Below are positions 2,423 through 31,805 of a DNA stretch of 32,000 nt, in pieces. A model generated the notes under the pieces. The model was not told the DNA's origin, did no database searches, and saw only the letters and a list, made by a program, of their open reading frames with translations. The stretch comes from Dubosiella newyorkensis (GTDB taxonomy: Bacteria; Bacillota_I; Bacilli_A; Erysipelotrichales; Erysipelotrichaceae): the NCBI RefSeq assembly GCF_001945605.1, contig NZ_MPKA01000067.1, positions 89,519-121,518 on the forward strand. The letters run 5' to 3'. Made by a program: the position numbers and the translations under genes. Each line of letters opens with the position of its first letter. The stretch's first letter is position 1.

Positions 2423-2447
2423 AAAAAAAAGACCCGTTCTCCGGGTC
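2423..2447 (-). terminator. Intrinsic terminator closing the 11-gene filament/signalling operon
   Basis: The minus strand reads GACCCGGAGAACGGGTC followed by TTTTTTTT. The stem is 6 bp GC-rich with a 5 nt loop, and it overlaps the PocR stop codon. Confidence 0.8.
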
Positions 2448-2934
2448 ATTCGCAAAGCGTTTTGTAGTAAGAAAGAAGCGCCAATAAAAGCTGAATACTG
2501 TCGTTGACTTCTTCTTCATCCATTTCCACGATCTTCTCGTAATTTTGCATCATGATCTCTTTTGGCAGATCGTATTTCACAACGATATACTCGATCCAGC
2601 GTTCCTTGTCTTCGATTTGCTGAGAAGTGATGACGCCCTCCGAGACGATAACGCCTTTCACATCCTCAAAGTCTACAGGAACCGACCATTTCACTAGACC
2701 AGCGTGGCATGAATACATTTGGATCTCGTTTTTTCCTAACGCATTCGTATAATTCTCTATAGTGCAAGCTTCGCAATGTTCGAGCGCTTTATTACTCATT
2801 TTAATGCACTTGCAAAAGAAGTTTTTCTCCTTCGCGCTATCCACATCGCCAATATCTTGAACAAAATATGAGCGAAGACCTGTTATTTGATGATAGAAAT
2901 CCATTGCTTTTTGAATTGCTTCCAATGATCTCAT
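2446..2934 (-). CDS. Stand-alone PocR sensory-domain protein (no output domain)
   Basis: PocR hallmarks are present: FFCKC...HCEAC and YSCHAGLVKWSVPV...KGVIVSEGV. At 162 aa it has no HTH or kinase domain. Confidence 0.7.
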   Translation of the reverse strand: MRSLEAIQKAMDFYHQITGLRSYFVQDIGDVDSAKEKNFFCKCIKMSNKALEHCEACTIENYTNALGKNEIQMYSCHAGLVKWSVPVDFEDVKGVIVSEGVITSQQIEDKERWIEYIVVKYDLPKEIMMQNYEKIVEMDEEEVNDSIQLLLALLSYYKTLCE

Positions 2935-2995
2935 AATCCTAAATCCCTCCGATTCGTATTCTTTTCTTTTATTTAACCACAGAATGAAAGCGTAT

Positions 2996-5458
2996 TCAAG
3001 ATATGGAAGGCGCAGACAAATATTTCCGCAACATCTGCATCACCAAAGCGATATCGATCGGCTTTGGAATATGGGCATTCATGCCCGCTTCTTTCGCGCG
3101 GGTCGCGTCTTCATTGAACGCGTCGGCCGTCATCGCCAAGATCAATACATCCGCATCCGCCCTCTTGGAATGGCGGATCCTTTTCGCCGCCTCATAACCA
3201 TCCATGTTCGGCATCCGGATATCCATCAAAATCGCGTCATAATAGCCGACCGAACTCGATTCGAAAAGATCGAGCGCCTCTTTTCCATCCTTCGCCCGCT
3301 CCAAAAGCAAACCTCGCTCCTCGAGAAGATCGTGCGCGATCTCATAATTGAGCTCGTTATCTTCCGCGATCAAGATCCGCTTTCCAGCAAGAGAACTATT
3401 CTCTTCCTTCTTTTCCACTTCCTTTTCTTCAAGCGTAAAGAACGGCTGTATCCCTTCATATAAAGAAGAAGGAAACAGAGGCTTTTGAATAAATCCATCA
3501 ATACCCGCCTCTTTGGCTTGGCTTTGGATCTCCGAAAAATCATAAGCCGAAATCAAAATGATCGGGATCGGCTCGGCCACCTGTGCACGGATCCTTTTCG
3601 CCAATTCGATCCCATCGCAAGATGGCATCTTCCAGTCGAGAAGAACCACATCATAGTGCTTCTCCTTGAGCTTGTTCAGCGCCTTGTTCACATCGATATA
3701 GGATTCCAAAGAAATTCCCATCTGTTCGAGCGATTCCGACACCGTTTCGAGAAAGAGCGGATCATCATCGATCACCATGAGATTGAGCGGAGGCAAAGAA
3801 ACAACCGTTCCTTGTGCGCTGGCCTTCTTCAGATCCAAAATGACATGGAACTGGCTGCCCGAGCCGATCTCACTTTCGATCAAGATCTGTCCGCCCATCG
3901 CGTCAATAATATGTTTCGTGATCGCCATTCCTAAACCACTGCCCTCTGTATGATCCACGACCTGGCTTCTTTCGCGCGTGAAAGAATCATAGATCTTGGC
4001 GATAAATTCTTTCGACATGCCAATACCCGTATCTTCCACGACCATATGAAGACGAATGAATTCAGGCTTGTCCTCTAAGGCCTCTTCTCGTAAGCTTACC
4101 GTGATCCGTCCGCCCTCTGGCGTAAATTTGATCGCGTTCGATAATAAATTCATAAAGATCTGGGACATCCGCACAGAATCGCCATATACGTTTTCATACT
4201 CCACGTTGCTCAAAAGCACATCAAAATCTTGATGCTTCGCGAGAACTTGGGGCTGAGCGATCGCCACAATGTCCCCCACAAGCTCTTTGAGCGATAAAAC
4301 TTCATATTGCAGCGTCAATTTGCCGCTTTCGATCTTCGACATATCGAGCACATCGTTGATCAAACTCAAAAGATGCTTACTCGACTGCATGATCTTCAAA
4401 AGACAATGCTTCACTCGATCTCTATCCTCTTCATGCGCCAATGCGATCGTCGTCATTCCCATGATCCCATTCATTGGCGTCCGGATATCGTGCGACATTT
4501 TTGACAAGAATTCGCTTTTGGCGTTGCTAGCCACCATAAGCTTGTCATTTAAGATCCGAAGCTGCTCGATCTGACGCTTCGAGAACCGATAATATTGATA
4601 AAATCCGATCAATAAAACGCCAAAGATCAAGACAGAACCAAGACCGATCCAAAAGATCGTCTTCATGTTCAACCCATTGATCAAATCGTTGATCACGCCA
4701 AAAGGCATCGTCGTGATCAAATACGATTTTGTATACGGCAAAGGCGTCGCATAGATCCGGATCCTTTCTCCATGCTCCGTCCAGACATTCGAATACGTCT
4801 CGTTTTTCTCCATCGCTTGCTGTAGACCTTTGACATCTTCGGATTTCCAACGATCAAAATAAGACCCATTGAAACCGTCGTCCGAATCGCGGATCACATA
4901 CGAGCCATCGTTGGCAATGATCAAGCTCGCCACCGGACTTTTCTCTTCCGGCTTAAATAGACGAGCCGCCAAGTCGGTAGCCGGAATCTCGCCCACTAAA
5001 GCTTTTCCACGATACGGGATCCCAAAAGCGATCACTCTCCCGTTTTGAGAGGTGCCTGTGCGAACGACGATCTCGCCATCTTGGATCCCCTTCAAAAAAG
5101 AAGCTTTACTGTTGAGCTCGCTTGGATCGCCATAGAGAAGATCTACATTTCCTTGACTATCGTAGATCGCCAAAGAACTCATCCCTTTTGTCTTGGCGCT
5201 CTCGATCATATCGGCTTGATCTTCATTCAAGCCGATCTCCGCGAGTTGGTCCAGCCTTGTCTCTACGATCGTCTCGAAATGCTGGACATTTTTATCGCTG
5301 ATCCCTTCCATATAAATGTTTCCGATTTCAGTGATCGTCTTCACGCTATCGTGCTGCAGGACATAGATCAAGCCAGTCATGATGGCTACACTCAACACGA
5401 TGAACCCAATAAAACAAAGGAGCATCGGCTTTAATGAAAAATTCTTTTGTTCATTCAT
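2996..5458 (-). CDS. Hybrid sensor histidine kinase: TM, approx 230 aa extracytoplasmic Cache-like domain, TM, HisKA, HATPase_c, REC, REC
   Basis: H-box is MSHDIRTPMNGI and the G-boxes are DTGIGM and GSGLGM. Two receiver domains carry acceptor Asp residues in VLLDWKMP and ILMDIRMP. Two hydrophobic segments flank a Cache-like region. The ATG overlaps the Hpt stop (ATGA). Confidence 0.9.
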   Translation of the reverse strand: MNEQKNFSLKPMLLCFIGFIVLSVAIMTGLIYVLQHDSVKTITEIGNIYMEGISDKNVQHFETIVETRLDQLAEIGLNEDQADMIESAKTKGMSSLAIYDSQGNVDLLYGDPSELNSKASFLKGIQDGEIVVRTGTSQNGRVIAFGIPYRGKALVGEIPATDLAARLFKPEEKSPVASLIIANDGSYVIRDSDDGFNGSYFDRWKSEDVKGLQQAMEKNETYSNVWTEHGERIRIYATPLPYTKSYLITTMPFGVINDLINGLNMKTIFWIGLGSVLIFGVLLIGFYQYYRFSKRQIEQLRILNDKLMVASNAKSEFLSKMSHDIRTPMNGIMGMTTIALAHEEDRDRVKHCLLKIMQSSKHLLSLINDVLDMSKIESGKLTLQYEVLSLKELVGDIVAIAQPQVLAKHQDFDVLLSNVEYENVYGDSVRMSQIFMNLLSNAIKFTPEGGRITVSLREEALEDKPEFIRLHMVVEDTGIGMSKEFIAKIYDSFTRERSQVVDHTEGSGLGMAITKHIIDAMGGQILIESEIGSGSQFHVILDLKKASAQGTVVSLPPLNLMVIDDDPLFLETVSESLEQMGISLESYIDVNKALNKLKEKHYDVVLLDWKMPSCDGIELAKRIRAQVAEPIPIILISAYDFSEIQSQAKEAGIDGFIQKPLFPSSLYEGIQPFFTLEEKEVEKKEENSSLAGKRILIAEDNELNYEIAHDLLEERGLLLERAKDGKEALDLFESSSVGYYDAILMDIRMPNMDGYEAAKRIRHSKRADADVLILAMTADAFNEDATRAKEAGMNAHIPKPIDIALVMQMLRKYLSAPSIS

Positions 5459-5802
5459 ATTTTCTCGATCGCTTGAATCGCCCGCTCATACACGGGCACA
5501 GTTTCCTCAAAAACAAGCACGCCCTGCTCATCCCATTCATGCCGCAAGAGATCCGATAATTGATTGGCTTGCATATACAGATCGTGCATGCCTAAATTCT
5601 GGCATACCCCTTTCAGTGTGTGGGCCGCCAAAAACGCTTGTTCCCGATCTTTGTTTTGGATCGCTTCCTGCAATGAAGCAAAGCTAGGATCGTCGATAAA
5701 TTTCTTTAAAAACTTCACGATCATCTTATCGCTTGGAAGTCGCTTTCGGACCTCCTCGTACGAACCTCCTAATTCCTTAAAACAATCTTTTAATGTATAC
5801 AT
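5455..5802 (-). CDS. Hpt (histidine phosphotransfer) domain protein
   Basis: The 115 aa protein has the phosphorylatable-His motif AAHTLKGVCQNLG. AAGGAG RBS lies 6 nt upstream. Confidence 0.8.
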   Translation of the reverse strand: MYTLKDCFKELGGSYEEVRKRLPSDKMIVKFLKKFIDDPSFASLQEAIQNKDREQAFLAAHTLKGVCQNLGMHDLYMQANQLSDLLRHEWDEQGVLVFEETVPVYERAIQAIEKI

Positions 5803-5803
5803 C

Positions 5804-7843
5804 CTACTCTCCTTTATAGATTTTTAGACAACCGCGGCCGCTCCGCTTCGCTTCATAAAGCATAAAATCCGCCACATTGAACAAATCGTCAAAATTCCGT
5901 TTGATATATTCTGTACTTGCCACACCCATACTGATCGAAATCGGAAACCCTTTATAAGAGCCACTGCTGATCGTATGGAAGATCCGGTCCATGATCGTCT
6001 CCAAATTCCCTGGATATTGAAGCATGATCAAAAACTCATCGCCGCCGATCCGCCCGGCAATATCGAGCTTGCGGATCGAGCCTTGGATCCGTTTGGCTAA
6101 ATAAGCAAGCACCTCGTCTCCAAAGGCGTGTCCATATTCATCGTTGGCGTTTTTGAAAAAATCAAGATCAAGGATCGCAATCGCGTACTCCATCATTTCG
6201 TCCGCTTCCTCGAGCCGTTTTTTCACTTGGATCTGGGTATAATTCTTATTTAAAAGACCAGTCAATTCATCGATCGAAGCGCTTCGCTCCAACATCTCGT
6301 GCGTCATCTTTTGAGAATGGATATCCAAAAGCAAGCCTAAATAGCCACGCACATCTTTTGGATCCTTTTCATGATAGAGCGGATGCAAAATGATCCGCCA
6401 CCAATGCGGCTCTCCGCCATGCTCCGTCGAAAAATTAAAATCGATATCGTCCTCTTTCCCTTTTGAACATTCGATCTCGTGCAGGATCCGATCTATATTT
6501 TCTTTTCCTAGCTTTTCAAGCAAAAGAGGATCGTGCTGCGGATCCAGGATCGAAGAAGGGATCTCGTATTTTTTCGCCATCGAAGACGAGATCGTCAAAA
6601 ACATCGGATCGAGCGAGATCTCAAAACGGATCTCCTGAGTCTTCTCTGAATAAAACGTATACGAGATCTGATCGCGCTTCGAAATCAGATCAAGCGCTTC
6701 TGCCGCAAAATCATCCCGCAACGAAGGCGTCAAGATCGGATCGGTGCATAAATCAAGGAACTCGCGCCGATCGCTGATGACCTCCATCTTTGCCATCTGC
6801 ACGATCTCTTTGAGCTCCTTTTGCACCGTCGGATCTTTGAGCACTTGCAGAAGCAACGGATTGAAGCAGCCACATTCGCCATTCAAGATCATATCGATCG
6901 CTTTTTGCGGAGGGAACGCTTTCTTATAGACACGCTCCATCGTCAGCGCGTCATAAACGTCCGCGATCGCGACCACTTGCGCGCTGATCGGGATCTCGCT
7001 TCCCTTCAGGCCATCCGGATACCCGCTTCCATCAAAGCGTTCATGGTGCCATCTGGCGATCTGCTTTGAAACGATCATAAGCGGTTCGTTGCGATAATTC
7101 GGCACTTTATTCAAAATGTCATATCCGTTTTTGGCGTGCTTCTTGATCTGCTCGAATTCTTCTGGATCGAGGCGAGAGGGTTTGTTTAAGATCTTGGAAG
7201 GCACTGTGATCTTTCCGACATCGTGCAAGGAAGAAGCGAGCGCGATCTGCTCGATCGTCTCATTGTCCAATTTGAGTTGCGGATCGATCTCGGTCAGCTT
7301 TTTTAAAAGGACTTTCGTGATCTGCCGCACATTCAAGACGTGCTGTCCGCTCTCCTCGTTTCTAAATTCGACAATATGCGACAAGATGTTGATGAGCATG
7401 TCGCTTTGCTTGCCTTGCTCCTTAACCTGCTTTTGGACAAGGTATTGGAGCCGTTTTTGTTTGGCGTGCGCCAAGATCGTATTTTCGACACGATGTCGAA
7501 CGATCGAGACATTGAACGGGCGAACGATAAAATCAAAAATCCCATATCCATACGCTTGATCGATAAACTCGCCATCGCTCTCTGCCGTGATCATGATGAT
7601 TGGGATCTGGCTTAGCCAACCTCTTTGTTTCATGATCTTCAAAAACTCAAAACCATTCATGTGCGGCATATAGTAATCCAGCAAGATCAAAGAAATCCCA
7701 TGCGGATCTTTTTCCACGACTTGAAGGCCCTCGAATCCGTTATCCGCTTTGATGATTTCATATTGCTCCTCCAAGATCTCGCTGAGCATCTCCTGATTGA
7801 AGGCCGAATCATCGACGATCAATATTTTTGGCTTTTGATCCAT
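5804..7843 (-). CDS. Response regulator with REC, HD-GYP phosphodiesterase, PAS-like linker and GGDEF diguanylate cyclase domains
   Basis: REC: ILIVDD...LILLDYYMP. HD-GYP: LHDVGK...HHERFDGSGYPDGL. GGDEF: GRIGGDEFLI, with an RxxD I-site (RKLD) exactly 5 residues upstream. Confidence 0.9.
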   Translation of the reverse strand: MDQKPKILIVDDSAFNQEMLSEILEEQYEIIKADNGFEGLQVVEKDPHGISLILLDYYMPHMNGFEFLKIMKQRGWLSQIPIIMITAESDGEFIDQAYGYGIFDFIVRPFNVSIVRHRVENTILAHAKQKRLQYLVQKQVKEQGKQSDMLINILSHIVEFRNEESGQHVLNVRQITKVLLKKLTEIDPQLKLDNETIEQIALASSLHDVGKITVPSKILNKPSRLDPEEFEQIKKHAKNGYDILNKVPNYRNEPLMIVSKQIARWHHERFDGSGYPDGLKGSEIPISAQVVAIADVYDALTMERVYKKAFPPQKAIDMILNGECGCFNPLLLQVLKDPTVQKELKEIVQMAKMEVISDRREFLDLCTDPILTPSLRDDFAAEALDLISKRDQISYTFYSEKTQEIRFEISLDPMFLTISSSMAKKYEIPSSILDPQHDPLLLEKLGKENIDRILHEIECSKGKEDDIDFNFSTEHGGEPHWWRIILHPLYHEKDPKDVRGYLGLLLDIHSQKMTHEMLERSASIDELTGLLNKNYTQIQVKKRLEEADEMMEYAIAILDLDFFKNANDEYGHAFGDEVLAYLAKRIQGSIRKLDIAGRIGGDEFLIMLQYPGNLETIMDRIFHTISSGSYKGFPISISMGVASTEYIKRNFDDLFNVADFMLYEAKRSGRGCLKIYKGE

Positions 7844-7845
7844 AC

Positions 7846-8901
7846 TTATCGGACCTTTCTTTGAAAGGCGATCGGATCTTGGACAAAGCCGAGCGCCTTT
7901 TCCTTTGAGACGATTTTATTTCGCACCAGTTCTGCGATCGAATCGTCCATCGAGATCATTCCTTGTTCTTTGGAAGTATGGATCACGTTGTTGATCTGGA
8001 AGATCTTGCCTTCCCGGATCAAATTCGCGATCGCCGGAGTCACGATCATGATCTCGAAAGCAGGATGCAGCTTGCCATCTTCTCCAGGAATGAGCTGCTG
8101 CGAGACGACCGCTTTGAGCACCATCGAAAGCTGTACCCGGATCTGCGATTGCTGATTGGGCGGAAAGGCGTCGATGATGCGGTCGATCGTCTTGGCCGCC
8201 CCTAACGTATGCAAGCTCGACAAGAGCAGCTGTCCTGTCTCGGCGGCGCTGATCGCCGTTTGGATCGTTTCAAAATCACGCATTTCTCCAAGCAAGATCA
8301 CATTGGGCGTTTGTCGAAGCGCGGCCCTTAGCGCCGCGGCATAATCCTTGGTATCGAGCGAGATCTCTCTTTGCGAGATCAAAGAACGCTTATGCGAATG
8401 GATGAATTCGATCGGATCTTCAAGAGTGATGATATGCCCACCCTTATTTTCGTTGATACGATCGATCAAGCACGCTAAAGTGGTCGACTTTCCGCTTCCC
8501 GCAGGCCCTGTGACCAGCACCATTCCATTTTTTGTGTTGGCCAGCTCTAAGATCGAAGGCAAGATTTCCATATGCTTTGGATCTGGCAAGCCAAAAGGGA
8601 CGACCCGTACGACGCAGGCAAAAGAGCCTCTTTGTTTATAGGCATTGCATCGAAACCGTCCAAGAGAAGGAATGGCGAACGAAAAATCATCATCGCCGCT
8701 TTTTTTCAGCGTTTCTTTGTCGCGATCTGCTATTTTATAAATCTGGTCGATCCACATCGAAGAATCGCTGGGCATGATTTTCTTTTCAAAGAGCGGTTTC
8801 AATTTCCCTTCGGATTTGACTTGGATCGTGGCGCCCGGAATGATAAAAAGATCCGAACTTTTCTGAAGGATCGCTTCCTTCAAGATCTCTGAAATATCCA
8901 T
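7846..8901 (-). CDS. pilT: PilT-family type IV pilus (retraction-type) ATPase
   Basis: Walker A is GPAGSGKST; also HIITLEDPIEF and LLGEMRDFETI. The PilT-specific motif AIANLIREGK is present. I chose the start at ATG 8899-8901 (AGGAG upstream, 2 nt after the preceding stop). The track ORF extends to 8952 without support. Confidence 0.9.
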   Translation of the reverse strand: MDISEILKEAILQKSSDLFIIPGATIQVKSEGKLKPLFEKKIMPSDSSMWIDQIYKIADRDKETLKKSGDDDFSFAIPSLGRFRCNAYKQRGSFACVVRVVPFGLPDPKHMEILPSILELANTKNGMVLVTGPAGSGKSTTLACLIDRINENKGGHIITLEDPIEFIHSHKRSLISQREISLDTKDYAAALRAALRQTPNVILLGEMRDFETIQTAISAAETGQLLLSSLHTLGAAKTIDRIIDAFPPNQQSQIRVQLSMVLKAVVSQQLIPGEDGKLHPAFEIMIVTPAIANLIREGKIFQINNVIHTSKEQGMISMDDSIAELVRNKIVSKEKALGFVQDPIAFQRKVR

Positions 8902-8903
8902 GC

Positions 8904-9269
8904 TTACTTCTCCTTTCCGTCCCATACTGGAATATGGGTGTCTTCGATCCAATCGGCTTTAGATTCGATCGTTTCCTTTTTGATTTGTACGCCTCCTGCC
9001 TCATTCACAAGCAAGACTTGAAGAACGCGGTTATCATCGATCGGGATCGTCACGCTCTCTTGAAAAGGCTCTTCCCCTCTCTCCATCCTCAAGCGTTTGA
9101 TTTCTAGCTCGCTGATCGCTTCATGATACGCTTTAGAGGAGGCGATCGCTTGATCCACACGGGTATCTTGCATCTTGGCCGAATACAGCCCGAGCGTTCC
9201 AAAACAAATGAGCGCGAGCACTAAGGCGATCAGCACAAAAGACGCCGTTCCAATTCCTTTATTTCGCAT
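8904..9269 (-). CDS. Small N-terminally anchored pilin-like protein (ComGG/PilX-like architecture), 121 aa
   Basis: N-terminus is MRNKG-IGTASFVLIALVLALICFG: a basic leader ending in Gly, then a hydrophobic helix, with no Glu at +5. AAGGAG lies 6 nt upstream of the ATG at 9267-9269. It overlaps the upstream gene by 11 nt. Confidence 0.6.
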   Translation of the reverse strand: MRNKGIGTASFVLIALVLALICFGTLGLYSAKMQDTRVDQAIASSKAYHEAISELEIKRLRMERGEEPFQESVTIPIDDNRVLQVLLVNEAGGVQIKKETIESKADWIEDTHIPVWDGKEK

Positions 9270-9636
9270 CGCCATCTCCTTGTCCTTTGACCTTGCTTTC
9301 AAGATGGATCAATTCTTGATCTTGAAAAGACAATCTCAGATCGATCGTATGCAGGCCCTCTTCGTAAGAAGTCTTCTTTTCGAGAACATACTTTCCGTCT
9401 TCATCTTCTTCCATATAGGCGTCCATCCGGACCTGAAAATCTCGCCCTTCTTGTGGGTCGATCCGATACGCTTCGATCAGCTCCCCCATATAGATCTGGC
9501 CATAGCTTTTCGCTTGGGCCCTCTCATGGATCAAAAAGGTCTTGGCGTAGAGCTGGACGATCACCACCGAAGCGAGCGCAAAAAAGAAAAGAATGATGAT
9601 CATTTCCATAAAGCTCGCGTTCCGATTTTTTTTCAC
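9259..9636 (-). CDS. Small pilin-like protein with a degenerate prepilin signal, 125 aa
   Basis: GTG start with AAGGAG 7 nt upstream. N-terminus is KKNRNASFMEMIIILFFFALASVVIV, which resembles the KGFTLIEMLIVL class III signal, but Gly-1 is replaced and the Glu position is shifted. Confidence 0.6.
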   Translation of the reverse strand: MKKNRNASFMEMIIILFFFALASVVIVQLYAKTFLIHERAQAKSYGQIYMGELIEAYRIDPQEGRDFQVRMDAYMEEDEDGKYVLEKKTSYEEGLHTIDLRLSFQDQELIHLESKVKGQGDGDAK

Positions 9637-9640
9637 GATC

Positions 9641-10072
9641 TCACTCCTTTCTTTGATGGACTAAGCGTTGTTCTTTCCCTTCTCGATTTCTTAAAATGAT
9701 CTCGAACCGGCCATTTTCTTCTTCCACGATAAAACCAGGAAGCGATACGATCTTTTCTTGCGGTTTTTTTTCAAATGGCAGCTCGGAAAGAGCGCTCCAT
9801 TCGTAGAGCGTTCCATCGATCTCGTAGATATACGTCGAATATCCATCGTATTGAAGGCAGAGCGCTCCATTTTCGATCTGAATATCCTCGTATCCGTTCC
9901 GCAATTTATTTTGAATATATAAATAGGCGGTCCGCAGGTTGTTGGACGCCTCGTCTTGCGAGGTGATCGTTCCATACACACGTGTACCTAGAAGGACAAG
10001 GATCAGCGAGAACAAGACGAACAAGCCATAAAGCGTAAAGATGAAAAAATCTTGCCAGCTTCTCTTCTTCAT
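9641..10072 (-). CDS. Small N-terminally anchored minor-pseudopilin-like protein (ComGF/GspJ-like architecture), 143 aa
   Basis: ATG at 10070-10072 with GGAGG 9 nt upstream, 2 nt after the preceding TGA. A single TM helix (FFIFTLYGLFVLFSLILVLL) is followed by a beta-rich domain. Confidence 0.6.
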   Translation of the reverse strand: MKKRSWQDFFIFTLYGLFVLFSLILVLLGTRVYGTITSQDEASNNLRTAYLYIQNKLRNGYEDIQIENGALCLQYDGYSTYIYEIDGTLYEWSALSELPFEKKPQEKIVSLPGFIVEEENGRFEIILRNREGKEQRLVHQRKE

Positions 10073-10074
10073 CT

Positions 10075-10368
10075 TCAATTTCCTCCTCGCTCGATCACGA
10101 TGATCCGCGGCCGCAAGTTTTCTGCGAGCACTTCGTAGCGAACGATATATCGCTCTGCATCATAATGGATCGACTCGTCGCTAAGCAGCTCCTGCAAGCT
10201 AGCCGGATAGCGGCCCTCTAAAGCGTATTGGTTGACGATCGCTTCCTCCAAGCTTTCTTGAAGCAGCTTGGTCGATTCGCTGCTAGTCTTTGCGCTGATC
10301 AAGCCGATCGCGAAAATAGCGATCGCGATGATCGAGAAAAGCGCGAGCCCTAAACGAAATTTACGCAT
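10075..10368 (-). CDS. Small pilin-like protein, candidate major subunit, 97 aa
   Basis: N-terminus is MRKFRLG-LALFSIIAIAIFAIGLISA. It is followed by EAIVNQYALEGRYPASLQELL, which is very similar to the conserved GspG/type IV pilin segment (helix, then x-Y-x-x-x-G-x-YP-x-x-L-x-x-L). GGAG RBS is present. Confidence 0.65.
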   Translation of the reverse strand: MRKFRLGLALFSIIAIAIFAIGLISAKTSSESTKLLQESLEEAIVNQYALEGRYPASLQELLSDESIHYDAERYIVRYEVLAENLRPRIIVIERGGN

Positions 10369-10377
10369 ACCTCGCTC

Positions 10378-11424
10378 CTAGCCCATCGAAAGCATGAGCG
10401 AGATCAGCGGCAGCATCGTCGAAAGAAGGATGCCGCCAACGATCAGTGTCAGCAGCGCCACGATTGTTGGCTCGACGATCGATACGATATGCTCGATCCC
10501 TTCATCGACTCGCTTTTCATACAAATCGGAAAGCTCCATAAAGACTTGGTCGACTTGGCCTGTTTCGTTGCCGACTTCGATCATTTTTTCTTGAAGGGGA
10601 GCGAAAAGATGGGAGGCTTCGATCGCTTGATCGAAATCATTGGTTTTCAAAAATGTCTCATAGCACGTTTTCGCTTGTTTTTGAGAGCTTGCTGTCGGCA
10701 TAAAGCGCGGCAGAAGCTCGATCGTCTCCTCTAAGGAGTATCCGCTTCTTAGCGCCATCGACACGACTTGTGAAAAACGCTGAGCGGCTTGGGCTTCAAA
10801 GATATGGTGCAATGGCGGAATAAAGCGCGCCGCCTTGAGCAAGATCTCTTTACCTTGATGGCGTTTATATAAAATATAAAGGAGGATGGCCGCGATTCCG
10901 ATCAATGCTGTCAAGACAAGGATGGCGTAGCCGATCCCGATCCCGATATTCAAGATCGGCGTTTCTTCTTGGGAAATCCCTAGGTTTTCATAGACGCGGA
11001 TAAAGACTGGGATCACCTGGATGACCATCACGCCAATGACGATCGCCATCATGAATAAAAGAATGAGCGGATAGGTCAAAGCGGAGCGAAGCGTTTCTTT
11101 CAAGCGGGCTTCTTTTTTATAGTATTCGGAAAGAAGATGAAGGACGCTTTCTAAATTGCCTGTCAGTTCGGCGATCTTGATCATTTGCAGAAAATAAGCG
11201 GGGAAAGCGTTTGTTTCTTTGAACGCTTCATACATCGTTTTTCCTTGCTTGATGTAGGTGTTGATCGTTTCTAACAGGGCCCCGTATTCGCTTTGACGAT
11301 ACGAGGAAGCGAGAATATCGATCCCATCGTAAAAGAGGATCCCCGATCGTAAGATCATCGAGCATTGGGAACATAAAATAGCGAGTTGTTCGGCGCTCAT
11401 CGTGTATTTTGATTTTGTTGGCAT
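10378..11424 (-). CDS. Type II secretion system F family (PilC/GspF/ComGB-like) inner-membrane platform protein
   Basis: Two T2SSF repeats (e.g. LTYPLILLFMMAIVIGVMVIQVIPVF and EPTIVALLTLIVGGILLSTMLPL). ATG at 11422-11424 with AGGAGG 8 nt upstream. The track's TTG at 11430 is too close to the RBS. Confidence 0.9.
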   Translation of the reverse strand: MPTKSKYTMSAEQLAILCSQCSMILRSGILFYDGIDILASSYRQSEYGALLETINTYIKQGKTMYEAFKETNAFPAYFLQMIKIAELTGNLESVLHLLSEYYKKEARLKETLRSALTYPLILLFMMAIVIGVMVIQVIPVFIRVYENLGISQEETPILNIGIGIGYAILVLTALIGIAAILLYILYKRHQGKEILLKAARFIPPLHHIFEAQAAQRFSQVVSMALRSGYSLEETIELLPRFMPTASSQKQAKTCYETFLKTNDFDQAIEASHLFAPLQEKMIEVGNETGQVDQVFMELSDLYEKRVDEGIEHIVSIVEPTIVALLTLIVGGILLSTMLPLISLMLSMG

Positions 11425-11426
11425 GC

Positions 11427-12287
11427 TCAATACCTCCTGTCTTCTATATAGTCTTCGGTTTTGTTTTTATTGTTTTTGCCATAGGTCGGATCGTACCATG
11501 TCCATTCGCCATCGATCTCGACTTGGTTCCAGGCATGATAGATCCCTTCGCTGGATAGATCCCCCATCACAAGGCGGGTCGGGATATTTTGGGCGCGCAG
11601 CATCGCGGCCATAAGGGCGGCATAGTCGAAGCAGATCCCTTTTTTTTCTTGAAGCACTTGTTCAAGATTGGGGATATAGCCCGCCTGGACATTGGCGGCC
11701 TTTTCGTTGTCGTAATCCATGTATTGGATGAGGTAGTTATAGATGGCGTCGATCTTTTCTTGATCGCCCTCGAGTCCATCGCACAGATCGTACGACAATA
11801 AAATGGCGGGATATTCGTGGGTATACCACACGAATTGATTGGGAAAGACAAAAACGCGGTCCTCCTGTTTTTGTTGAACAGATAGATCTTCCGAATAGAT
11901 CTGGGCGTATTTGTTGTCTTGTATATTTTGATAAAACGTGATCGAATATTCACCATTTCCCATCTGCAGTGGGAAAACGCTGTATTCCATATTGGAAGGG
12001 AGAGTATAGGTGTATTGGTCGGTGCCAAGCTGGATGCGGCATTTCAGCTTCGCATCAAAAGGCTGGAGCGTCCGGACCATGACATAGCCATCGCTCGTGT
12101 TGGAGGCGTCGATCTCGATCTGGCCATTCGATAAGACGACTTCGTTCGAAGAAGAAGGCTCGTTGATCGTGATCTCGCCTTTGTAGATCGAACCCGGCTC
12201 GATTTCTTGAAATTTTGTAGACTGAGAGGAGCAAGCGCTAAAAAAAAGACAAAAAAGCGCGAGGATCCATCGATATACACGCCACAT
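11427..12287 (-). CDS. Transglutaminase-like cysteine protease-fold lipoprotein
   Basis: Lipobox is LFFSAC after a signal peptide. A Cys-His-Asp triad is present in KKGICFDYAALMAAMLRAQNIPTRLV, YHAWNQV and WYDPT. Confidence 0.85.
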   Translation of the reverse strand: MWRVYRWILALFCLFFSACSSQSTKFQEIEPGSIYKGEITINEPSSSNEVVLSNGQIEIDASNTSDGYVMVRTLQPFDAKLKCRIQLGTDQYTYTLPSNMEYSVFPLQMGNGEYSITFYQNIQDNKYAQIYSEDLSVQQKQEDRVFVFPNQFVWYTHEYPAILLSYDLCDGLEGDQEKIDAIYNYLIQYMDYDNEKAANVQAGYIPNLEQVLQEKKGICFDYAALMAAMLRAQNIPTRLVMGDLSSEGIYHAWNQVEIDGEWTWYDPTYGKNNKNKTEDYIEDRRY

Positions 12288-12316
12288 TTGCCTTTCCCCC
12301 CTTTCTTATTTTAGAA

Positions 12317-12345
12317 AATATAACATATTTCACCCTTTTTAGCAA
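12317..12345 (-). promoter_or_regulatory. Sigma-A-type promoter of the filament/signalling operon
   Basis: The minus strand reads TTGCTA, a 17 nt spacer, then TGTTATATT (extended -10), about 30 nt upstream of the transglutaminase ATG. It is the only good promoter match in the 147 nt intergenic region. Confidence 0.6.
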
Positions 12346-12402
12346 ACGTCCTATGCACCTGACTTGAAAATCCAAAATTTATGTGATTTTATGAATTTTT
12401 AC

Positions 12403-12438
12403 CAAAAAAAATAGAAGATGAACTCTTTCATCTTCTAT
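12403..12438 (-). terminator. Intrinsic terminator of the uvrA-hprK-trxB unit
   Basis: Perfect 12 bp stem ATAGAAGATGAA/TTCATCTTCTAT with a 4 nt loop, followed on the minus strand by T8. It overlaps the trxB stop. Confidence 0.85.
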
Positions 12439-13343
12439 TCACGAACTCTTCGAAAAGCCATTTGGCCAACTAAGGCGCCTTCGCCTGTCGCGGTCACGAC
12501 TTGTCTGAGCTGCTTGTCGACAATATCCCCTGCCGCGTACAAGTTTTTCACGCTCGTTTCCATGTCGCGGTCGACCATCACGTAGCCATGCTCATTGGTT
12601 ACACCTAGATCTTTGACGGCTTCGCTTAAAGGATCGGAGCCGATATAAGGGAAGATCCCCGCGCATTCGATCGTTTTTTCTTCGCCTGTCTTCACGTTTT
12701 TGATCACGATGCCTTTGACGATCTCATCAAAGAGCACTTTTACTGGCACGTGCTCGCGGATGATCTCGATCTTGTCGTTGTGCTCTACATCGTATTGAAG
12801 CTTGGATTCGGCCCGGAATTGATCGCGCCGGATGACGATATAGATCTTATTGACGAACTGCGTCAAATAAATCGATTCCTCAAGCGCGGAGTTTCCGCCC
12901 CCGATCACGACGACATCTCTTCCTCGAAAGAAGGCGCCATCGCAAACAGCGCAATACGAAACGCCTTTCCCGATGCCTTCCTGTTCGCCAGGAATGTTCA
13001 TCATCCGCTCTTTCGTTCCGGTCGCGAAAAGGACAGCTTTAGCTTTGATCGTATTTCCATCTTTTAAATGGATCGTTTTGTCTTCATCGACCTTTTCGAC
13101 TTCTCCAGCCACATAGTCGGCGCCAAAAGCGAGCGCTTGATCGAACATCGTCATCGCCAGCTCCGCGCCTCCCATTTCTTTGATGCCTGGATAATTTTCG
13201 ATATGATACGTTTTTAACAGCTTTCCGCCTGGAGCGCCCGCTTCGATGATGCATGTATCGAGTCCGGCACGAGAGGCGTACAAGGCCGCGCTCATGCCTG
13301 CAGGTCCAGCGCCCACGATCACAAATTCATATTCTTTTTTCAT
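12435..13343 (-). CDS. trxB: Thioredoxin-disulfide reductase
   Basis: FAD motif is VGAGPAGMSAA, the redox-active motif is CAVCDG, and the NADPH motif is VIGGGNSALEE. I chose the start at ATG 13341-13343 (AGGAGG upstream). The track's 28 aa basic extension would overlap hprK. Confidence 0.92.
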   Translation of the reverse strand: MKKEYEFVIVGAGPAGMSAALYASRAGLDTCIIEAGAPGGKLLKTYHIENYPGIKEMGGAELAMTMFDQALAFGADYVAGEVEKVDEDKTIHLKDGNTIKAKAVLFATGTKERMMNIPGEQEGIGKGVSYCAVCDGAFFRGRDVVVIGGGNSALEESIYLTQFVNKIYIVIRRDQFRAESKLQYDVEHNDKIEIIREHVPVKVLFDEIVKGIVIKNVKTGEEKTIECAGIFPYIGSDPLSEAVKDLGVTNEHGYVMVDRDMETSVKNLYAAGDIVDKQLRQVVTATGEGALVGQMAFRRVRE

Positions 13344-17288: not shown

Positions 17289-20200
17289 TTAAAGGATATC
17301 CTTTCTCTTTTTCCAAAGGAGTCCAATGCCCAACAAGCTCAAAATAAGCAGGCTTGTCCATGCAAGATGGTTGGTTTGAGCGGCCGTGTTGGCGCTTGTC
17401 GGTTTGGTTGGCGTGCCGTTTTTCGAAGAGGCCGGCGTACCAGGCTCTACGGAAACGGTGACTTCATTGGTAGGAACGCGCTGATCTTGATAGAGCAGGA
17501 CGCCCGTGTTGATCCAGGCGCTGTTTTGAGTCACGACTGGGATCTTCACTTTAAAGGATACATCGACGCTTTCGTCAGGAGCGAGGTGATCGATCTTCCA
17601 TCTCACGATACCGTTTTCGATCGTTCCATCATGATCGATCGAGTTAGGAACAAAGCGAAGTCCTTGCGGAATCGCGTCTTTGACTTGCAGATCACGCACT
17701 TCTTCTTTTCCTCGATTCTGGATGCGGAGGATGTAGGTGATCGTATCGTCGATATGCGCTTTGATCCGGATCTTGGATGGTGTTCCATCGTTGTGGGCTT
17801 GCAGCTTTTCGATCGTGATATTTGGTTCTTCTTTTGGCGTTTCGATCTCGACTTCATTGGATGGAGTCGGCTCGTCTGGACGGGTCGATTCGCTCGCCTG
17901 CGCGATATTTTTCCAAAGTCCATCTTGAGCTGGGACTTCGATCGCGAAAGAGACGGTTCTTTCTGTTCCTGTCTTCATCGTGCCTAAATGCCATGTGATC
18001 GTGCCGTTTTCCACCACGCCATCGTCGGATACGCTGCCTTCGACAAGGATCAATCCGCTCGGTATCGTATCAGAGACGACCACATCGTTGGCATCGGCCT
18101 GTCCTGCGCTTGTGACTTTGATAAAGTAGGTGACGATATCTTTTTCATCGACGCTCAGCTTGTCTTTCGTTCGATTGCCTTCATTGCGTTTTTGCGATTT
18201 TTCGATCTTAAGGCTTGGAGCGAACGTTTCGACTTCGACTGGTGGCGTCTTCTTTGGTTCTGGTTCTTCGTCATCGTAAGCGGAGGCGACATTGATCCAT
18301 CGCGTATATTCTTTGACGGCTGGCACTTTGACTTGGAACGACACCGTTTTCTTTTCCTTAACGTTCAGGTTGGCGATCTTCCATGTGATCATACCCTCTT
18401 TTTCTTGGCCTTGATCGCTGATCGAGTCTTGAACAAGGCTCAAACCGTCTGGAACGATATCTTCGATGACGACATTGTGGACGGCCAGGTTTCCTTTGTT
18501 TTCGACGTCGATTTCATACGTGATCGTGTCCCCGGCTTTGGCTTGAAGCCTGCTTTGGGTGAAGGAGCCTCCATTTTTCGCTTGGCGTTTGAGGATTTCT
18601 AGATTTGGCGTATTGATCTCGATTTCGACTGGCGGCGTTTTGAATGGTTCTGGTTCGTCAGGATGACTGAGGCTTGCGATATTTTCCCAGCGAGTCGCCT
18701 CTTTGATGTCTGGAACTTTGACTTTGAACCACACTTCTTTTTCTTCGTTTGGTTCCAATGTACCGATGTTCCAAATGATCTCTCCTGTTTCAGAGCGTTC
18801 ATATGGATACGTTGGATCGATTTCCACAAGCTGCAGATCGCCATTTTCATGGGTCGGGATCGAGTCTTTGATCTGCACGTCATGGGCTGGCAGCGCGCTT
18901 TTATTGGTCGCTTTCAAATAGTAGGTGACAATATCTTGCGCTTTTCCATGAAGCAATTCTTTGTGCCGGTCTCCCTCGTTGAGTTTATGTTCTTTTTCAA
19001 GAACGACTTTTGGCGCGTCGGTCTCGACTTCGACTTTATTGGATGGGATATCGACTGGATCGCCTGTCTCTGGATTGTTTGGATTGTTGTCGTAATGCGT
19101 TTGGGCGCCATTCTCCCATAGTGTGTATTCCATCACGCTTGGAAGCTTCACCGTGAAGGTCACGGTTTTGGATTGTCCGATCTTGAGATCGCCGATTTTC
19201 CATGTGATCGTTTGCGTTTGCTTGTCGTACGATCCGTTGTCGCTTGCTTCTTGATAGTTCAAGAAGAGCGTGTGGGTTTTCTTATCGCTTGGTAGCGTGT
19301 CTTCAATGACGACATTTTTGGCGATCGCTTTGCCGGTGTTCGTAACCGTTAAACGATAGGTGAGCGTTTCGCCTATTTTCCCTGTGCGTCTTTGGGTCGT
19401 GAAGTCTGGATCGCTTTCGAGCTTTTGGTCTTTGAAGATCGTTAGTGCTGGCACATCGGTGGCGACTTCGACTTCATTGGAGTCTTTTGGCTCTTCCTCT
19501 TCATAGACGAGAGTGGCGATATTTTTCCAAGTCGTTTTTTGATCGACTTTTGGCACTTCGACGCTGAACGAGACTTGTTTGGTTTCTTCTGCTTCGATCG
19601 CGCCTAGATTCCAAAGGATCTGTTTTGTTTCTGGATCATAGATGCCTTGGTCGCTGATCGTATCTTGTTTCAATTCCAGTCCATTTGGCACGACATCTTT
19701 TACAAACACGTTTTCGATGGTATGCAGGCTTGGATTGTGGATCTTGAGCGTGTAGGTGACTAGATCGCCAGATTCAACAGCTTGGAATTGTTTTGTCATT
19801 TCTTGGTTGTTGATGGCTTGGAATTTTTCGATGTTCAATTCTTTGACGATCGTTTCGATATGGACCGTATTCGATTGTTTTGGCTCTTCGCCTTCGGCTT
19901 GCACGCTTCCTGTATTTGGCCAACGGGTGTCTTGTTCGACGATCGGCACTTGGATCTGGAACGATACGATTTTCGTTCCGCCTTTGGCTGGTAGTGTTCC
20001 AACATTCCAGCGCAGCGTGCGCGTCGCTTCGTCATACTTTCCTTCGTTGAAGGCTTTGACAAAGAGAAGGCCCTCTTCGATCGTATCGTTCACGATCACG
20101 TTTTTGGCTTCTTCTTCTCCTGTGTTGGTCACGACAAGATCGTAGGTGACTAGATCGCCAGGTCGTACTTGGAGCGGGTCGATACCATCATAGCGGATGT

Positions 20201-28316: not shown

Positions 28317-28515
28317 TTTTCTTTTCCCTTTCTCTTCACGCAAAAAAACGCCTTTTTCGTATGAAAAGAGGCGCTTGTAAGCTATGTTATTGTTTAGTTA
28401 TTTTTTCTTCCCATACTTTCTATTGAAACCATCTTGATAGGATGTTCCTTTTTAGGGGAAGCTTGGAGCGATCCTATCTTGGTCGTTTCCTTATTGCTCA
28501 ATCGTTTATTTTCGT
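28317..28515 (-). promoter_or_regulatory. Approx 200 nt structured 5' leader of the adhesin gene (candidate attenuator or riboswitch, class unassigned)
   Basis: It lies between the candidate promoter and the ATG. It contains a perfect 8 bp inverted repeat GATAGGAT...ATCCTATC closing a 27 nt loop, and it ends in a strong terminator hairpin. No ORF is present. Confidence 0.5.
28342..28374 (-). terminator. Intrinsic terminator located inside the adhesin leader, approx 25 nt upstream of the start codon
   Basis: The minus strand reads CGCCTCTTTTC-ATAC-GAAAAAGGCG followed by TTTTTTT (10 bp stem with one bulge). There is no upstream minus-strand gene for it to terminate, because the neighbour is divergent. 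Confidence 0.7.
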
Positions 28516-29858: not shown

Positions 29859-29893
29859 AAATAGAGACGATCCTCATCGATCTTCTCTATTTT
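29859..29893. terminator. Hairpin between the convergent MFS and signal peptidase genes
   Basis: Stem AAATAGAGA/TCTCTATTT (9 bp) with an inner CGAT/ATCG pairing, and A/T-rich flanks on both sides. Confidence 0.55.
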
Positions 29894-30362
29894 AATGTTG
29901 TAGCTTTTGTCCTAGCACATTCAACAAAGCTCCCACAACAGCCAAGGCGATCAAGAATATTTTTCCATTGATCATGCTCAGCGCTCCAAAGATGGCTCCT
30001 AAAGCTGGCGCATGAAATTGAACGACGCCTATGACTTGTCCATACGATACGGGTTCAAAGTCTTCTTGGGTGTTAGCGTCTCCTTTTGTGATCAATGAGG
30101 CTTTTGGAATATCGTTTTGCACGACTCGGTGGGTCACGATACTTCCTCGATGTTCAAAAGCGATCACTTCTCCTTCTTGGATCGTTTCTGGTTCTTCATA
30201 TTGAACCATGATCAAAGAACCTACTGGAATTTCTGGTTCCATGCTGCCAGAAACGACATTAAATAGCTCTTTTCCAAATAAAGAAGGAAGAAACATCAAG
30301 AGTCCTACAACGATCACAAGCGCCAATAAAAGCGTTCCTATTCCTTTACAAAGTTTTGCCAT
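29892..30362 (-). CDS. Signal peptidase I, SipW/ER-type (Ser-His) subfamily
   Basis: Catalytic Ser is in VVSGSMEPEIPVGS and catalytic His is in SIVTHRVV. There are N- and C-terminal TM anchors. GGAGG lies 7 nt upstream of the ATG at 30360-30362. The start overlaps the upstream HAD gene by 17 nt. Confidence 0.85.
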   Translation of the reverse strand: MAKLCKGIGTLLLALVIVVGLLMFLPSLFGKELFNVVSGSMEPEIPVGSLIMVQYEEPETIQEGEVIAFEHRGSIVTHRVVQNDIPKASLITKGDANTQEDFEPVSYGQVIGVVQFHAPALGAIFGALSMINGKIFLIALAVVGALLNVLGQKLQH

Positions 30363-31502: not shown

Positions 31503-31805
31503 AGCTTTCTTCTCCCTAAGAAATCTTTTTATTCAATTCTTCTTGAATCTCTTTGATCTTCTCGACCGAACATCTTGCGATCGTAGCGATTTCTTGAAGC
31601 GAAAATTCATTCATTTGAAGCATGAATCTTACTGTTTCGCGTTTTTCTTGTTCGATTCCTTGCGCCTTTCCTTGCTCGATTCCTTGCATAATTCCTCGCT
31701 TCATTCCTTGTTCGATTCCTTGCTCTCTGCCTAGCTTGATTCCTAGTTTCATTCCTTTTCTTTCCAAGCTGCTCTTATATGCGCTGCTGAATGCACCATC
31801 CATTG
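31263..31805 (-). repeat. Tandem direct duplication of the Rpn-like C-terminal coding module
   Basis: Long near-identical DNA stretches are shared, e.g. GTAGCGATTTCTTGAAGCGA and CATTCCTTTTCTTTC...GCTGCTGAATGC..CCATCCAT in both copies. The upstream copy carries extra EQG-type units. Confidence 0.7.

Follow-up and report, generated by a model that had tools for sequence, protein, structure and literature searches.

Our analysis of a 32,000-nucleotide stretch of the Dubosiella newyorkensis (Erysipelotrichaceae) genome, hereafter the window, supports the view that filament-type and signalling genes form one compact unit of 11 close-packed minus-strand genes (positions 2446-12287 in the ORF list, with starts from the public gene calls), numbered G1 to G11 from the upstream end. 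With moderate confidence, we favor a model in which this operon specifies a c-di-GMP-wired pseudopilus cassette that has a PilT-type ATPase as its only motor and carries its own relay. A first-pass annotation had described a filament module joined in one transcription unit to its sensor kinase, an Hpt protein and a c-di-GMP enzyme. The operon itself is confirmed and the interpretation is partly supported: our literature search likewise found no published description of such a cassette-signalling architecture, but the filament module is not peculiar to this locus, as its core is a seven-gene cassette widespread in Clostridia, in most copies of which the in-operon phosphorelay is missing.

The gene order and junctions were as originally reported. 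Spacings run from +9 nt (G2/G3) down to an 11-nt overlap (G5/G6), G9 and G10 share an ATGA overlap at 5455-5458, and the sole larger gap is the 61 nt from G10 to G11. Judged from this spacing, the eleven genes are probably co-transcribed. The single promoter-like site and the strong terminator proposed for the unit could both be located. A putative sigma-70-like promoter (TTGCTA-17-(TG)TATATT with a TG-extended -10; 12317-12345, minus strand) lies in the only sizeable intergenic gap, upstream of G1 and immediately 3' of the terminator of the upstream trxB gene (12409-12440, minus strand; a 14-pair stem, then a T run), which sets the 5' boundary. An intrinsic terminator (GACCCGGAGAACGGGTC plus T8; 2431-2447, minus strand), with five of six stem pairs G-C, forms the 3' end. 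The promoter match did not hold up as a statistical signal: a consensus scan returned 12 promoter-like sites where chance alone would give 13.0 +/- 4.1, and the call is therefore based on position and the extended -10. The leader would be only ~25 nt long, and a riboswitch search gave no Rfam match.

Pfam and TIGR profile scores bear out the domains first assigned to the proteins. G1 (11427-12287; 286 aa, WP_076341588) is an exported transglutaminase-like, papain-fold enzyme with a lipobox (FFSAC) and a Transglut_core match (2.4e-21); its catalytic triad (C219, H251, D266) is invariant in 73 of 73 orthologues, all of which carry an export signal. G2 (10378-11424; 348 aa) is a GspF/PilC-type platform protein with two T2SSF repeats (9.4e-41), although no NCBIfam equivalog model (GspF, PilC or ComGB) scores it above its cut-off. 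The sole ATPase of the unit is G7 (7846-8901; 351 aa), a PilT-family hexameric ATPase that scores 400 bits with TIGR01420 (cut-off 319) and, at full length, 303 bits against Aquifex PilT versus 89 bits against PilB/GspE cores. Its Walker A, Asp box, Walker B, His box and AIANLIRE motifs are all present. To our knowledge, every characterized PilT serves for retraction and has a PilB-type extension motor beside it. Consistent with the first-pass annotation, the window and the 10 kb around each of 89 related loci contained no PilB/GspE-type ATPase and no prepilin-peptidase motif; nor was a second platform protein found there, and PilB, PilD and PilMNO never adjoin the cassette in the 89 loci.

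Between platform and motor lie four small proteins, a four-slot pattern that is conserved across cassettes. They are pilin-like, as first proposed, with G3 the weakest case. G3 (slot 1; 10075-10368; 97 aa) possesses an N-terminal transmembrane helix and a conserved CYAxEGxYP domain, and its AF2 model (pLDDT 80.7, best model only) predicts a helix over residues 2-51 plus a beta hairpin. Type IV pilins rank top in a Foldseek search with this model, but at E > 1, and profile matches to CofA and TcpA are weak; the possible pilin assignment is not statistically significant and only suggestive. The prediction for G4 (slot 2; 9641-10072; 143 aa; DUF4860, 2.1e-6) is firmer (pLDDT 96.2; helix 3-58 plus eight strands), and the model is predicted to fold like the minor pseudopilin XcpW/GspJ, with chain 5bw0_C of the XcpV/XcpW complex as its best PDB match (prob 1.00, TM 0.52). 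G5 (slot 3; 9259-9636; 125 aa) begins MKKNRN followed by ASFMEMIIILFFF, a classical hydrophobic N-terminus with E5; all 48 of 48 family members share this glutamate, a PDB profile search gave type IV pilins, in register with G5, as its best five matches, and UniProt names G5 a prepilin-type N-terminal domain protein. The earlier statement that the locus lacks a canonical pilin is thus half right: G5 has the classical N-terminus, and there is no obvious major pilin among the unit's proteins. Residue -1 of G5 is Asn in 34 of the 48 members; with Asn rather than Gly there and no local prepilin peptidase, it is doubtful that a classical peptidase processes G5. G6 (slot 4; 8904-9269; 121 aa), which starts MRNKGIG followed by TASFVLIAL, has a GspK/PilX-like N-terminus without E5. 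Gly(-1) is kept in 42 of 44 members, two of which match PilX_N, and hhalign relates G6 to slot 3 with a probability of 86.5%.

The remaining genes include those of the putative signalling chain. Its kinase, Hpt, receiver, HD-GYP and GGDEF domains retain every phospho-acceptor and catalytic motif intact. G8 (5804-7843; 679 aa) is a response regulator in which REC and HD-GYP (HD_5) domains are followed, after an unassigned stretch of ~170 aa, by GGDEF; its D56, HDVGK, GSGYP and RKLD-x5-GGDEF motifs are conserved in six orthologues. An A5 tract in the HD-GYP coding region (7128-7132, minus strand) occurs as an A6 allele that splits the gene in many strains. G9 (5455-5802; 115 aa) is a single-domain Hpt phosphotransfer protein (5.4e-10) with a conserved HTLKG histidine. 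G10 (2996-5458; 820 aa) is a membrane hybrid histidine kinase (HisKA-HATPase-REC-REC) with two transmembrane segments, a ~230-aa extracytoplasmic domain, an SHDIRTP H-box and both receiver Asp residues; its orthologue in locus L007 gives a weak dCache_1 match. A recognizable c-di-GMP receptor (PilZ or MshEN) was absent from the operon. G11 (2446-2934; 162 aa) is a stand-alone PocR sensory domain protein (1.1e-19) that had been counted as part of the system. It lies inside the transcription unit but is absent from L007 and L092, and is clearly an opportunistic passenger rather than a conserved member.

The core (the transglutaminase-like exported protein, GspF, four small proteins and the PilT-family ATPase) occurs in the same gene order in 76 of 80 species-representative loci from Clostridia, the first gene being included in 71 of the 76. 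The same seven-gene make-up spans groups as far apart as Christensenellales, Lachnospiraceae and Erysipelotrichaceae; the cassette is widespread in Clostridia and Erysipelotrichia. Its immediate surroundings show a strong and recurrent enrichment in genes for c-di-GMP and phosphorelay functions: of the GGDEF domains, 21 fall within 4 kb of the cassette and none farther out, and of the Hpt domains, 13 and none. The ten-gene block from the transglutaminase gene through the REC/HD-GYP/GGDEF, Hpt and kinase genes recurs in four further lineages (L007, L090, L091 and L092) that share 64-69% PilT identity and each have a different chromosomal neighborhood. In L072 and L074, the order is changed: a G8 orthologue (38-39% identity over the full length) and Hpt are encoded on the upstream side of the cassette. 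Elsewhere, REC-EAL-GGDEF or plain GGDEF genes abut it (L036, L037, L040, L042 and L023), and a SARP regulator with a degenerate GGDEF domain that retains its I-site (invariant RxxD) adjoins it in 37 of 76 loci. In all, 49 of the 76 have some c-di-GMP or phosphorelay neighbor, and 27 have no recognizable one. The cassette has captured the signalling chain in the Dubosiella clade, and relatives repeat the link to c-di-GMP through other arrangements, with non-orthologous genes recruited independently. This linkage in relatives is the opposite of the unrelated neighbors that would have told against the original interpretation.

We envision a scenario in which the outer domain of G10 senses an extracellular cue and phosphate would pass from its receiver(s) through G9 to the receiver of G8, where phosphorylation could toggle between c-di-GMP hydrolysis by HD-GYP and synthesis by GGDEF. 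The local c-di-GMP level would then gate the PilT-type ATPase on its GspF platform; alternatively, the HD-GYP/GGDEF protein may touch the motor directly, as in Xanthomonas RpfG-PilT, where PilT and PilU are the targets of an HD-GYP/GGDEF/PilZ complex (PMC3749722). The gated motor would move a short pseudopilus back and forth, and PilT of the Vibrio cholerae MSHA pilus promotes extension as well as retraction (PMC9815625). The tip could consist of G6 (K-like), G4 (J-like) and G5 (I-like, with E5), while G3 may be the repeating subunit. The transglutaminase-like enzyme would act at the wall or surface end of the device, perhaps by opening or cross-linking the wall or by processing a protein of the surface. 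Where relatives have no in-operon relay, the adjacent SARP regulator with its I-site-only GGDEF probably sets cassette transcription under c-di-GMP. Filament formation and its control by c-di-GMP are, in this sense, what we infer from the genes.

It is possible, though we think it rather unlikely, that the cassette is no machine in itself but adds PilT, a spare platform and four minor pilins, for retraction and priming, to a type IV pilus or ComG pseudopilus whose extension ATPase, prepilin peptidase and major pilin are encoded elsewhere in the genome, with c-di-GMP tuning retraction of that pilus. G7 is a bona fide PilT, the small proteins resemble K, J and I minor pilins rather than a major pilin, and neither a peptidase nor PilB is local. 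Moreover, comG and tad loci that bring their own peptidases are common in Erysipelotrichales (PMC12786226), and a second pil operon is often found in those Gram-positive genomes that have pilT (PMC3244431). However, the cassette has its own platform protein and exported enzyme, keeps the same seven genes across such distant groups without ever adjoining PilB, PilD or PilMNO, and contains an E5 pilin whose Asn(-1) misfits the specificity of a shared classical peptidase.

Less probable still is a secretion or processing device built around G1 as a Cys-His-Asp protease or cross-linker. The pseudopilus would serve as a T2SS-like piston, or as a scaffold across the wall, for the export, positioning or activation of G1, and G1 would respond to a change in c-di-GMP by cleaving or cross-linking the wall or a surface protein. 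LapG, a c-di-GMP-controlled protease that releases the LapA adhesin, offers a functional analogy. The near-constant first position of G1, its invariant triad and export signal, the resemblance of G4 to a T2SS tip pseudopilin, the strong c-di-GMP linkage and a 3684-aa surface adhesin encoded 5 kb upstream in the window all fit such a device. Yet a Sec/lipoprotein signal of its own should let G1 be exported without any pseudopilus; the enzyme matches Transglut_core (PF01841) rather than the LapG family, there is no LapD-like receptor, and uvrA, hprK and trxB separate the adhesin, which is not a conserved neighbor elsewhere, from the operon. That the phosphorelay and G8 control c-di-GMP globally or serve unrelated targets, with nothing but a transcript in common with the cassette, is very improbable: the missing receptor, the 27 cassettes without signalling neighbors and the passenger PocR are consistent with it, but the same partners stay with the cassette when the order is rearranged (five lineages have them downstream, L072 and L074 upstream), non-orthologous c-di-GMP genes were recruited independently, and the GGDEF and Hpt domains, in the same loci, are confined to within 4 kb.

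Among known systems, the locus resembles type IV pili in its full-length PilT-family ATPase with an AIRNLIRE-type motif, its PilC/GspF platform and pilin-like proteins with a short basic leader, a hydrophobic alpha1 helix and, in one, E5; it differs in lacking PilB, PilD, PilMNO and a recognizable major pilin, in the Asn at -1 of its E5 pilin and in having an exported transglutaminase-like enzyme as a constant member. Its four pseudopilin-like proteins recall the T2SS tip complex GspK-GspI-GspJ (XcpX-V-W), with G4 folding like 5bw0_C, G6 GspK/PilX-like without E5, and G5 small with E5. Unlike a T2SS, the locus has neither GspE nor GspC/L/M nor a secretin, and it sits in a monoderm host; its ATPase is of the PilT clade, and G2 reaches 137 bits against a GspF equivalog cut-off of 424. 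Like ComG of Bacillota, the locus packs a single short ATPase, a single platform and several small pseudopilins into a compact operon of a monoderm, but the equivalogs are missed (ComGA, 126 versus 300 bits; ComGB, 125 versus 240), the gene order differs, a transglutaminase gene is present and the tie is to c-di-GMP rather than competence regulation. c-di-GMP controls type IV pili through MshEN domains of MshE/PilB or through riboswitches, as in V. cholerae MSHA and C. difficile pilA1; the second-messenger gating of a type IV filament that we propose would be similar, without an MshEN domain or riboswitch. Compared with the Xanthomonas RpfC/RpfG DSF pathway, our locus has a separate Hpt protein, no PilZ adaptor, and HD-GYP and GGDEF fused in one protein whose gene directly follows pilT. 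What the two would share is a hybrid kinase and phosphorelay that feed a REC-HD-GYP regulator (PMC3749722), which in Xanthomonas, complexed with GGDEF proteins, modulates the PilT motor post-translationally (PMC3749722).

The seven genes at the head of the operon recur together in many other genomes. These encode the transglutaminase (TGase)-like exported protein G1, the GspF platform protein G2, four small proteins (G3-G6, or slots 1-4) and the PilT ATPase G7. An alignment of G7 relatives, run against one genome per GTDB species, returned 80 loci with PilT identities of 54-63% from Lachnospiraceae, Oscillospiraceae, Christensenellales, Peptostreptococcaceae, Caproiciproducens, Murimonas and others. 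When these loci were compared by tblastn with the eleven window proteins, 76 of the 80 kept the order GspF, small ORFs, PilT, and 71 of those 76 had the TGase-like gene first. The interval between GspF and PilT nearly always holds four ORFs of about 100, 160, 135 and 150 aa. The slot-1 family alone comprises 2938 clusters at 90% identity, every one annotated hypothetical, and relatives of the DUF4860 protein in slot 2 form 374 clusters at 50% identity. In none of 89 loci is there a further T2SSE or T2SSF gene within 10 kb of the cassette, which bears out the first-pass claim that a PilB/GspE-type assembly ATPase is missing locally. In one relative (L009 1765-7186) the genes ahead of the cassette encode a MoxR-type AAA ATPase, a 387-aa protein without annotation and a 751-aa transglutaminase-domain protein, the second of that type in the locus.

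In the window the cassette opens a compact unit of eleven minus-strand genes between 12287 and 2446. Computed with the start codons of the public gene calls, the junctions from G1 to G11 measure +2, +9, +2, +4, -11, +2, +2, +1, -4 and +61 nt, the tight spacing with one larger gap that had been described, and the -4 junction between G9 and G10 is an ATGA at 5455-5458. Nine of the eleven genes have a ribosome-binding site of the GGAGG/AGGAG type; that of G8 is weak, and G10, whose start codon lies inside the ATGA overlap, is without one. The sole sizeable gap upstream of the operon (12288-12434) contains the trxB terminator (14 pairs, 12440-12409) and then TTGCTA-17-(TG)TATATT. What stands of the single good promoter claimed earlier is this site, which is backed by position and not by statistics: the scan as a whole gave 12 promoter-like sites, no better than the 13.0 +/- 4.1 expected in shuffled sequence. 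The single strong terminator placed at the 3' end is indeed there, as a GC-rich hairpin (5/6 GC pairs) followed by T8 at 2447-2431. Between 2200 and 12700 the scan found 21 terminator-like sites against 11.2 +/- 3.5 in shuffles; of the others, most of those within coding regions are weak 5-7-pair stems with poor T runs, and the one longer stem, inside G2 (9 pairs, 10456-10432), has no clean T run. Scanning the entire window with Rfam and for tRNAs gave no match, and hence no c-di-GMP riboswitch. The proteins G1-G8, all eight of those looked up, match D. newyorkensis RefSeq entries exactly (WP_076341581-WP_076341588), and the operon locus was found again in many mouse-gut metagenome assemblies.

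The same window carries a giant adhesin gene (17289-28343, minus strand) for a 3684-aa surface protein with many FctA/DUF7601 and CLIPPER (DUF11-like) repeats, a C-terminal hydrophobic anchor and a KKRK tail; an LPXTG motif is not obvious, and the whole gene has a strongly negative AT skew (-0.25 to -0.39). The idea that this adhesin and the operon are functionally linked was rejected, since the other loci do not conserve it as a neighbour. A gene for a 165-aa Peptidase_S24/S26 signal-peptidase-like protein of the SipW-like short type (29892-30389, minus strand) is separated from the start of the adhesin gene by about 1.5 kb, in which an MFS transporter is encoded, and a 154-aa ORF at 31516-31980 (minus strand) matches no Pfam family and contains a repetitive 'GIEQG / MKRGIMQGIEQGKAQGIEQEK' segment.

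The domain calls of the first-pass annotation all hold. G7 matches PF00437 (1.7e-39) and, over residues 20-359, TIGR01420 with 400.1 bits against a cut-off of 319.1; against Aquifex PilT in the PDB it reaches 303 bits along the full length, versus 89 bits to PilB/GspE cores, and it has all ATPase boxes as well as AIANLIRE, its form of the AIRNLIRE motif, at residue 290. By these sequence measures it is a true PilT of the PilT/PilU family (TIGR01420). G2 contains two T2SSF repeats (PF00482, 9.4e-41) and falls under every curated equivalog cut-off. G1 has a lipobox and a Cys219-His251-Asp266 triad that is present in 73/73 orthologues, all 73 of which also carry an N-terminal signal or anchor sequence; because the triad is invariant and the export signals are universal, G1 is very probably a papain-fold enzyme active outside the cytoplasm. 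No ORF in a six-frame translation of the window, or of 89 related loci, contains the prepilin-peptidase motif GxGD[VFA]K, and the annotated neighbours of the cassette include no Peptidase_A24 member, in line with the earlier remark that no such peptidase is encoded locally. Known systems, MSH among them, likewise borrow a peptidase whose gene lies elsewhere (PMC6668835).

All four small proteins had been called pilin-like; there is reasonable support for three of them. Slot 3 (G5) has a classical pilin N-terminus, with Glu in 48/48 sequences followed by Phe in 45/48, and the best five PDB matches to its profile are all type IV pilins with this Glu in register as E5. The statement that the locus lacks any canonical pilin thus needs softening, but residue -1 of this protein is unusual, being Asn in 34/48 sequences and Gly only once. 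Slot 4 (G6) has the leader junction G-[PV]-G|A-x-S-[LI], with Gly(-1) in 42/44 and no E5, like GspK/PilX, and aligns to slot 3 with an hhalign probability of 86.5%. For G4 (slot 2, DUF4860) the case comes from predicted fold: the model (pLDDT 96.2) packs a 56-residue helix on an eight-stranded sheet, and its best PDB match is the XcpV/XcpW minor-pseudopilin complex (5bw0_C; prob 1.00, TM 0.52, E 0.06). G3 (slot 1) is the exception. Its conservation peaks in the globular part, around the motif CYAVEGxYP...N..P, and its TM segment varies, whereas normal pilins show the opposite pattern; its best model (pLDDT 80.7, the remaining four 47-72) has a long helix and a hairpin, and type IV pilins top its fold list below significance. 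A word-indexed search with the single G3 sequence recovered only the identical Dubosiella protein, and the family emerged only with an alignment as query. G3, G5 and G6 went unrecognised in Pfam and NCBIfam scans, with family members as queries the matches were only scattered and weak (PilX_N 2/44, ComGE 2/48, T2SSI 1/48), and PDB profile searches with slots 2 and 4 returned nothing meaningful.

The three genes that follow the cassette have the motifs expected of a signalling pathway. The hybrid histidine kinase G10 has two TM segments around an outer domain of ~230 aa, then an H-box (SHDIRTP) and two receivers (DWKMP and DIRMP); the Hpt protein G9 retains its histidine (HTLKG); and in the REC-HD-GYP-GGDEF protein G8, D56, HDVGK, GSGYP and RKLD-x5-GGDEF, with its RxxD I-site, are conserved in six orthologues. 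With His, Asp and Hpt His in separate modules, G8-G10 make up a predicted multistep phosphorelay set in which G8, its GGDEF and HD-GYP active sites intact, is the predicted c-di-GMP turnover enzyme. No operon protein has a PilZ or MshEN motif. Between HD-GYP and GGDEF, G8 has ~170 residues (~345-515) that match no Pfam family and could form an extra sensory or interaction domain.

G8 also varies within the species. The window has five A in a poly-A tract (A5; 7128-7132, minus strand) where many D. newyorkensis assemblies have six (A6; comparison locus L093 2271-4311), and the A6 frameshift splits the gene within HD-GYP into a 241-aa ORF (REC and half of HD) and a 424-436-aa ORF (the GYP half and GGDEF). 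Split forms are found on >200 contigs, and about as many carry intact forms. These alleles may reflect strain polymorphism or slippage-based switching; A6 alleles should uncouple the receiver from the cyclase, and their frequency offers ready strain pairs for gut-colonisation phenotyping.

The filament and signalling genes had been proposed to form one hard-wired unit, and a gene-neighbourhood comparison agrees in part. The block from the TGase-like gene through G8, Hpt and the kinase is kept in four further lineages (L007, L090, L091 and L092; PilT identity 64-69%), where the visible flanks (glnA/ANTAR, era/recO, glyS/dnaG) are unrelated to the trxB and HAD hydrolase genes of the window. The PocR gene G11 is not a conserved member of this block: it is missing from all four loci and is therefore a passenger. 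Outside this clade the partners change. Two Christensenellaceae loci (L072, L074) have a full-length G8 orthologue and Hpt upstream of the TGase-like gene, and in others a REC-EAL-GGDEF, GGDEF, PBP-GGDEF or Hpt protein abuts the cassette. With HMMs built from these loci's own domains, 21 GGDEF and 13 Hpt domains were found within 4 kb of the cassette and none of either beyond (506 kb versus 421 kb searched). A c-di-GMP or phosphorelay neighbour accompanies 49/76 cassettes, or 34/51 of those with full flanks. Because these gene arrangements are independent, they support a functional link between cassette and c-di-GMP beyond this operon.

Clustering of flanking ORFs uncovered a further partner, which is not in the window and which lies directly up- or downstream of the cassette, on the same strand, in 37/76 loci (for example L060 11078-12307). 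This protein of ~400 aa combines an OmpR-type winged helix (Trans_reg_C), a BTAD (SARP)/TPR region and a degenerate GGDEF domain; in an alignment of L060 and 36 other loci RxxD is invariant and SxxQx stands in place of GGDEF. Given the known architecture of I-sites, a degenerate GGDEF domain with RxxD has the layout typical of c-di-GMP receptor domains, and we propose the SARP-GGDEF proteins as a candidate family of c-di-GMP-responsive transcription factors.

From the inventory of parts, the intact motifs and the conservation of the linkage, we infer a scenario in which the G10 kinase would sense an outside cue and, via Hpt, phosphorylate G8, which would toggle between c-di-GMP synthesis and breakdown. 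Either c-di-GMP, or G8 by direct contact, would gate the PilT motor at the GspF platform; this motor would move a short pseudopilus with a K/J/I-like tip, and the TGase-like enzyme would act at the wall or surface. A bolder reading, which we consider somewhat less likely than not, is that a PilT-clade ATPase, both extending and retracting, is the sole motor of a four-protein pseudopilus that has an obligatory exported transglutaminase-like enzyme as its working end and serves as a dedicated c-di-GMP output. The Asn(-1) E5 subunit would be matured by something other than a classical prepilin peptidase, or not matured, and the c-di-GMP wiring would consist of the in-operon phosphorelay and bifunctional enzyme in the Dubosiella clade and of the c-di-GMP-binding SARP regulator in most Clostridia. 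In the V. cholerae MSHA pilus, PilT can promote extension besides retraction (PMC9815625). The main rival, which we consider rather unlikely, would make the cassette an add-on that supplies retraction and minor pilins to a pilus whose genes lie elsewhere; comG and tad loci are common in Erysipelotrichales (PMC12786226). A secretion or processing device centred on G1, itself a variant of the pseudopilus model, seems improbable. Mere adjacency of signalling genes and cassette is very improbable, because the partners have been recruited in rearranged and non-orthologous forms.

To our knowledge, c-di-GMP signalling in Gram-positive anaerobes is poorly mapped, with few direct outputs known. Here, a conserved seven-gene machine of many gut and rumen Clostridia and of the mouse commensal D. 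newyorkensis has a neighbourhood in which c-di-GMP enzymes, Hpt relays and a candidate transcription factor that would bind c-di-GMP predominate. It represents a testable, apparently dedicated c-di-GMP output. It is also a natural experiment on whether a PilT-clade ATPase can by itself power a filament and on whether pilins without Gly(-1) are processed.

Judged from sequence, the ATPase and platform place the cassette in the type IV filament superfamily, and its pilins probably do so too. The cassette was set against, and found distinct from, ComG (ComGA 125.8 bits versus a cut-off of 300, ComGB 124.7 versus 240), T2SS (GspF 136.9 versus 424, GspE 115.8 versus 630, and no GspC/L/M, secretin or other further Gsp gene in the window) and Tad/Flp (33 bits to the TadA-family model versus 373, and no Flp-type pilin). 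It differs from type IVa pili, whose PilB/PilD/PilMNO set is absent from the operon. The likeness to Lap (LapG/LapD) is analogy only: G1 matches Transglut_core/DUF553 alone, and there is no LapD-like protein. As the first-pass annotation had supposed, no equivalent system was found in the literature on PilT with transglutaminase, on Dubosiella pili or on PilT in Erysipelotrichaceae and Clostridia, where the cassette, DUF4860 and, in this context, the SARP-GGDEF partner are undescribed; coverage was partial, leaving out most subscription journals, and such absence is not proof. The nearest regulatory precedent for the operon is RpfC/RpfG of Xanthomonas, in which RpfC, a hybrid kinase, phosphorylates RpfG, a REC-HD-GYP protein that acts on PilT/PilU with GGDEF proteins and a PilZ adaptor (PMC3749722).
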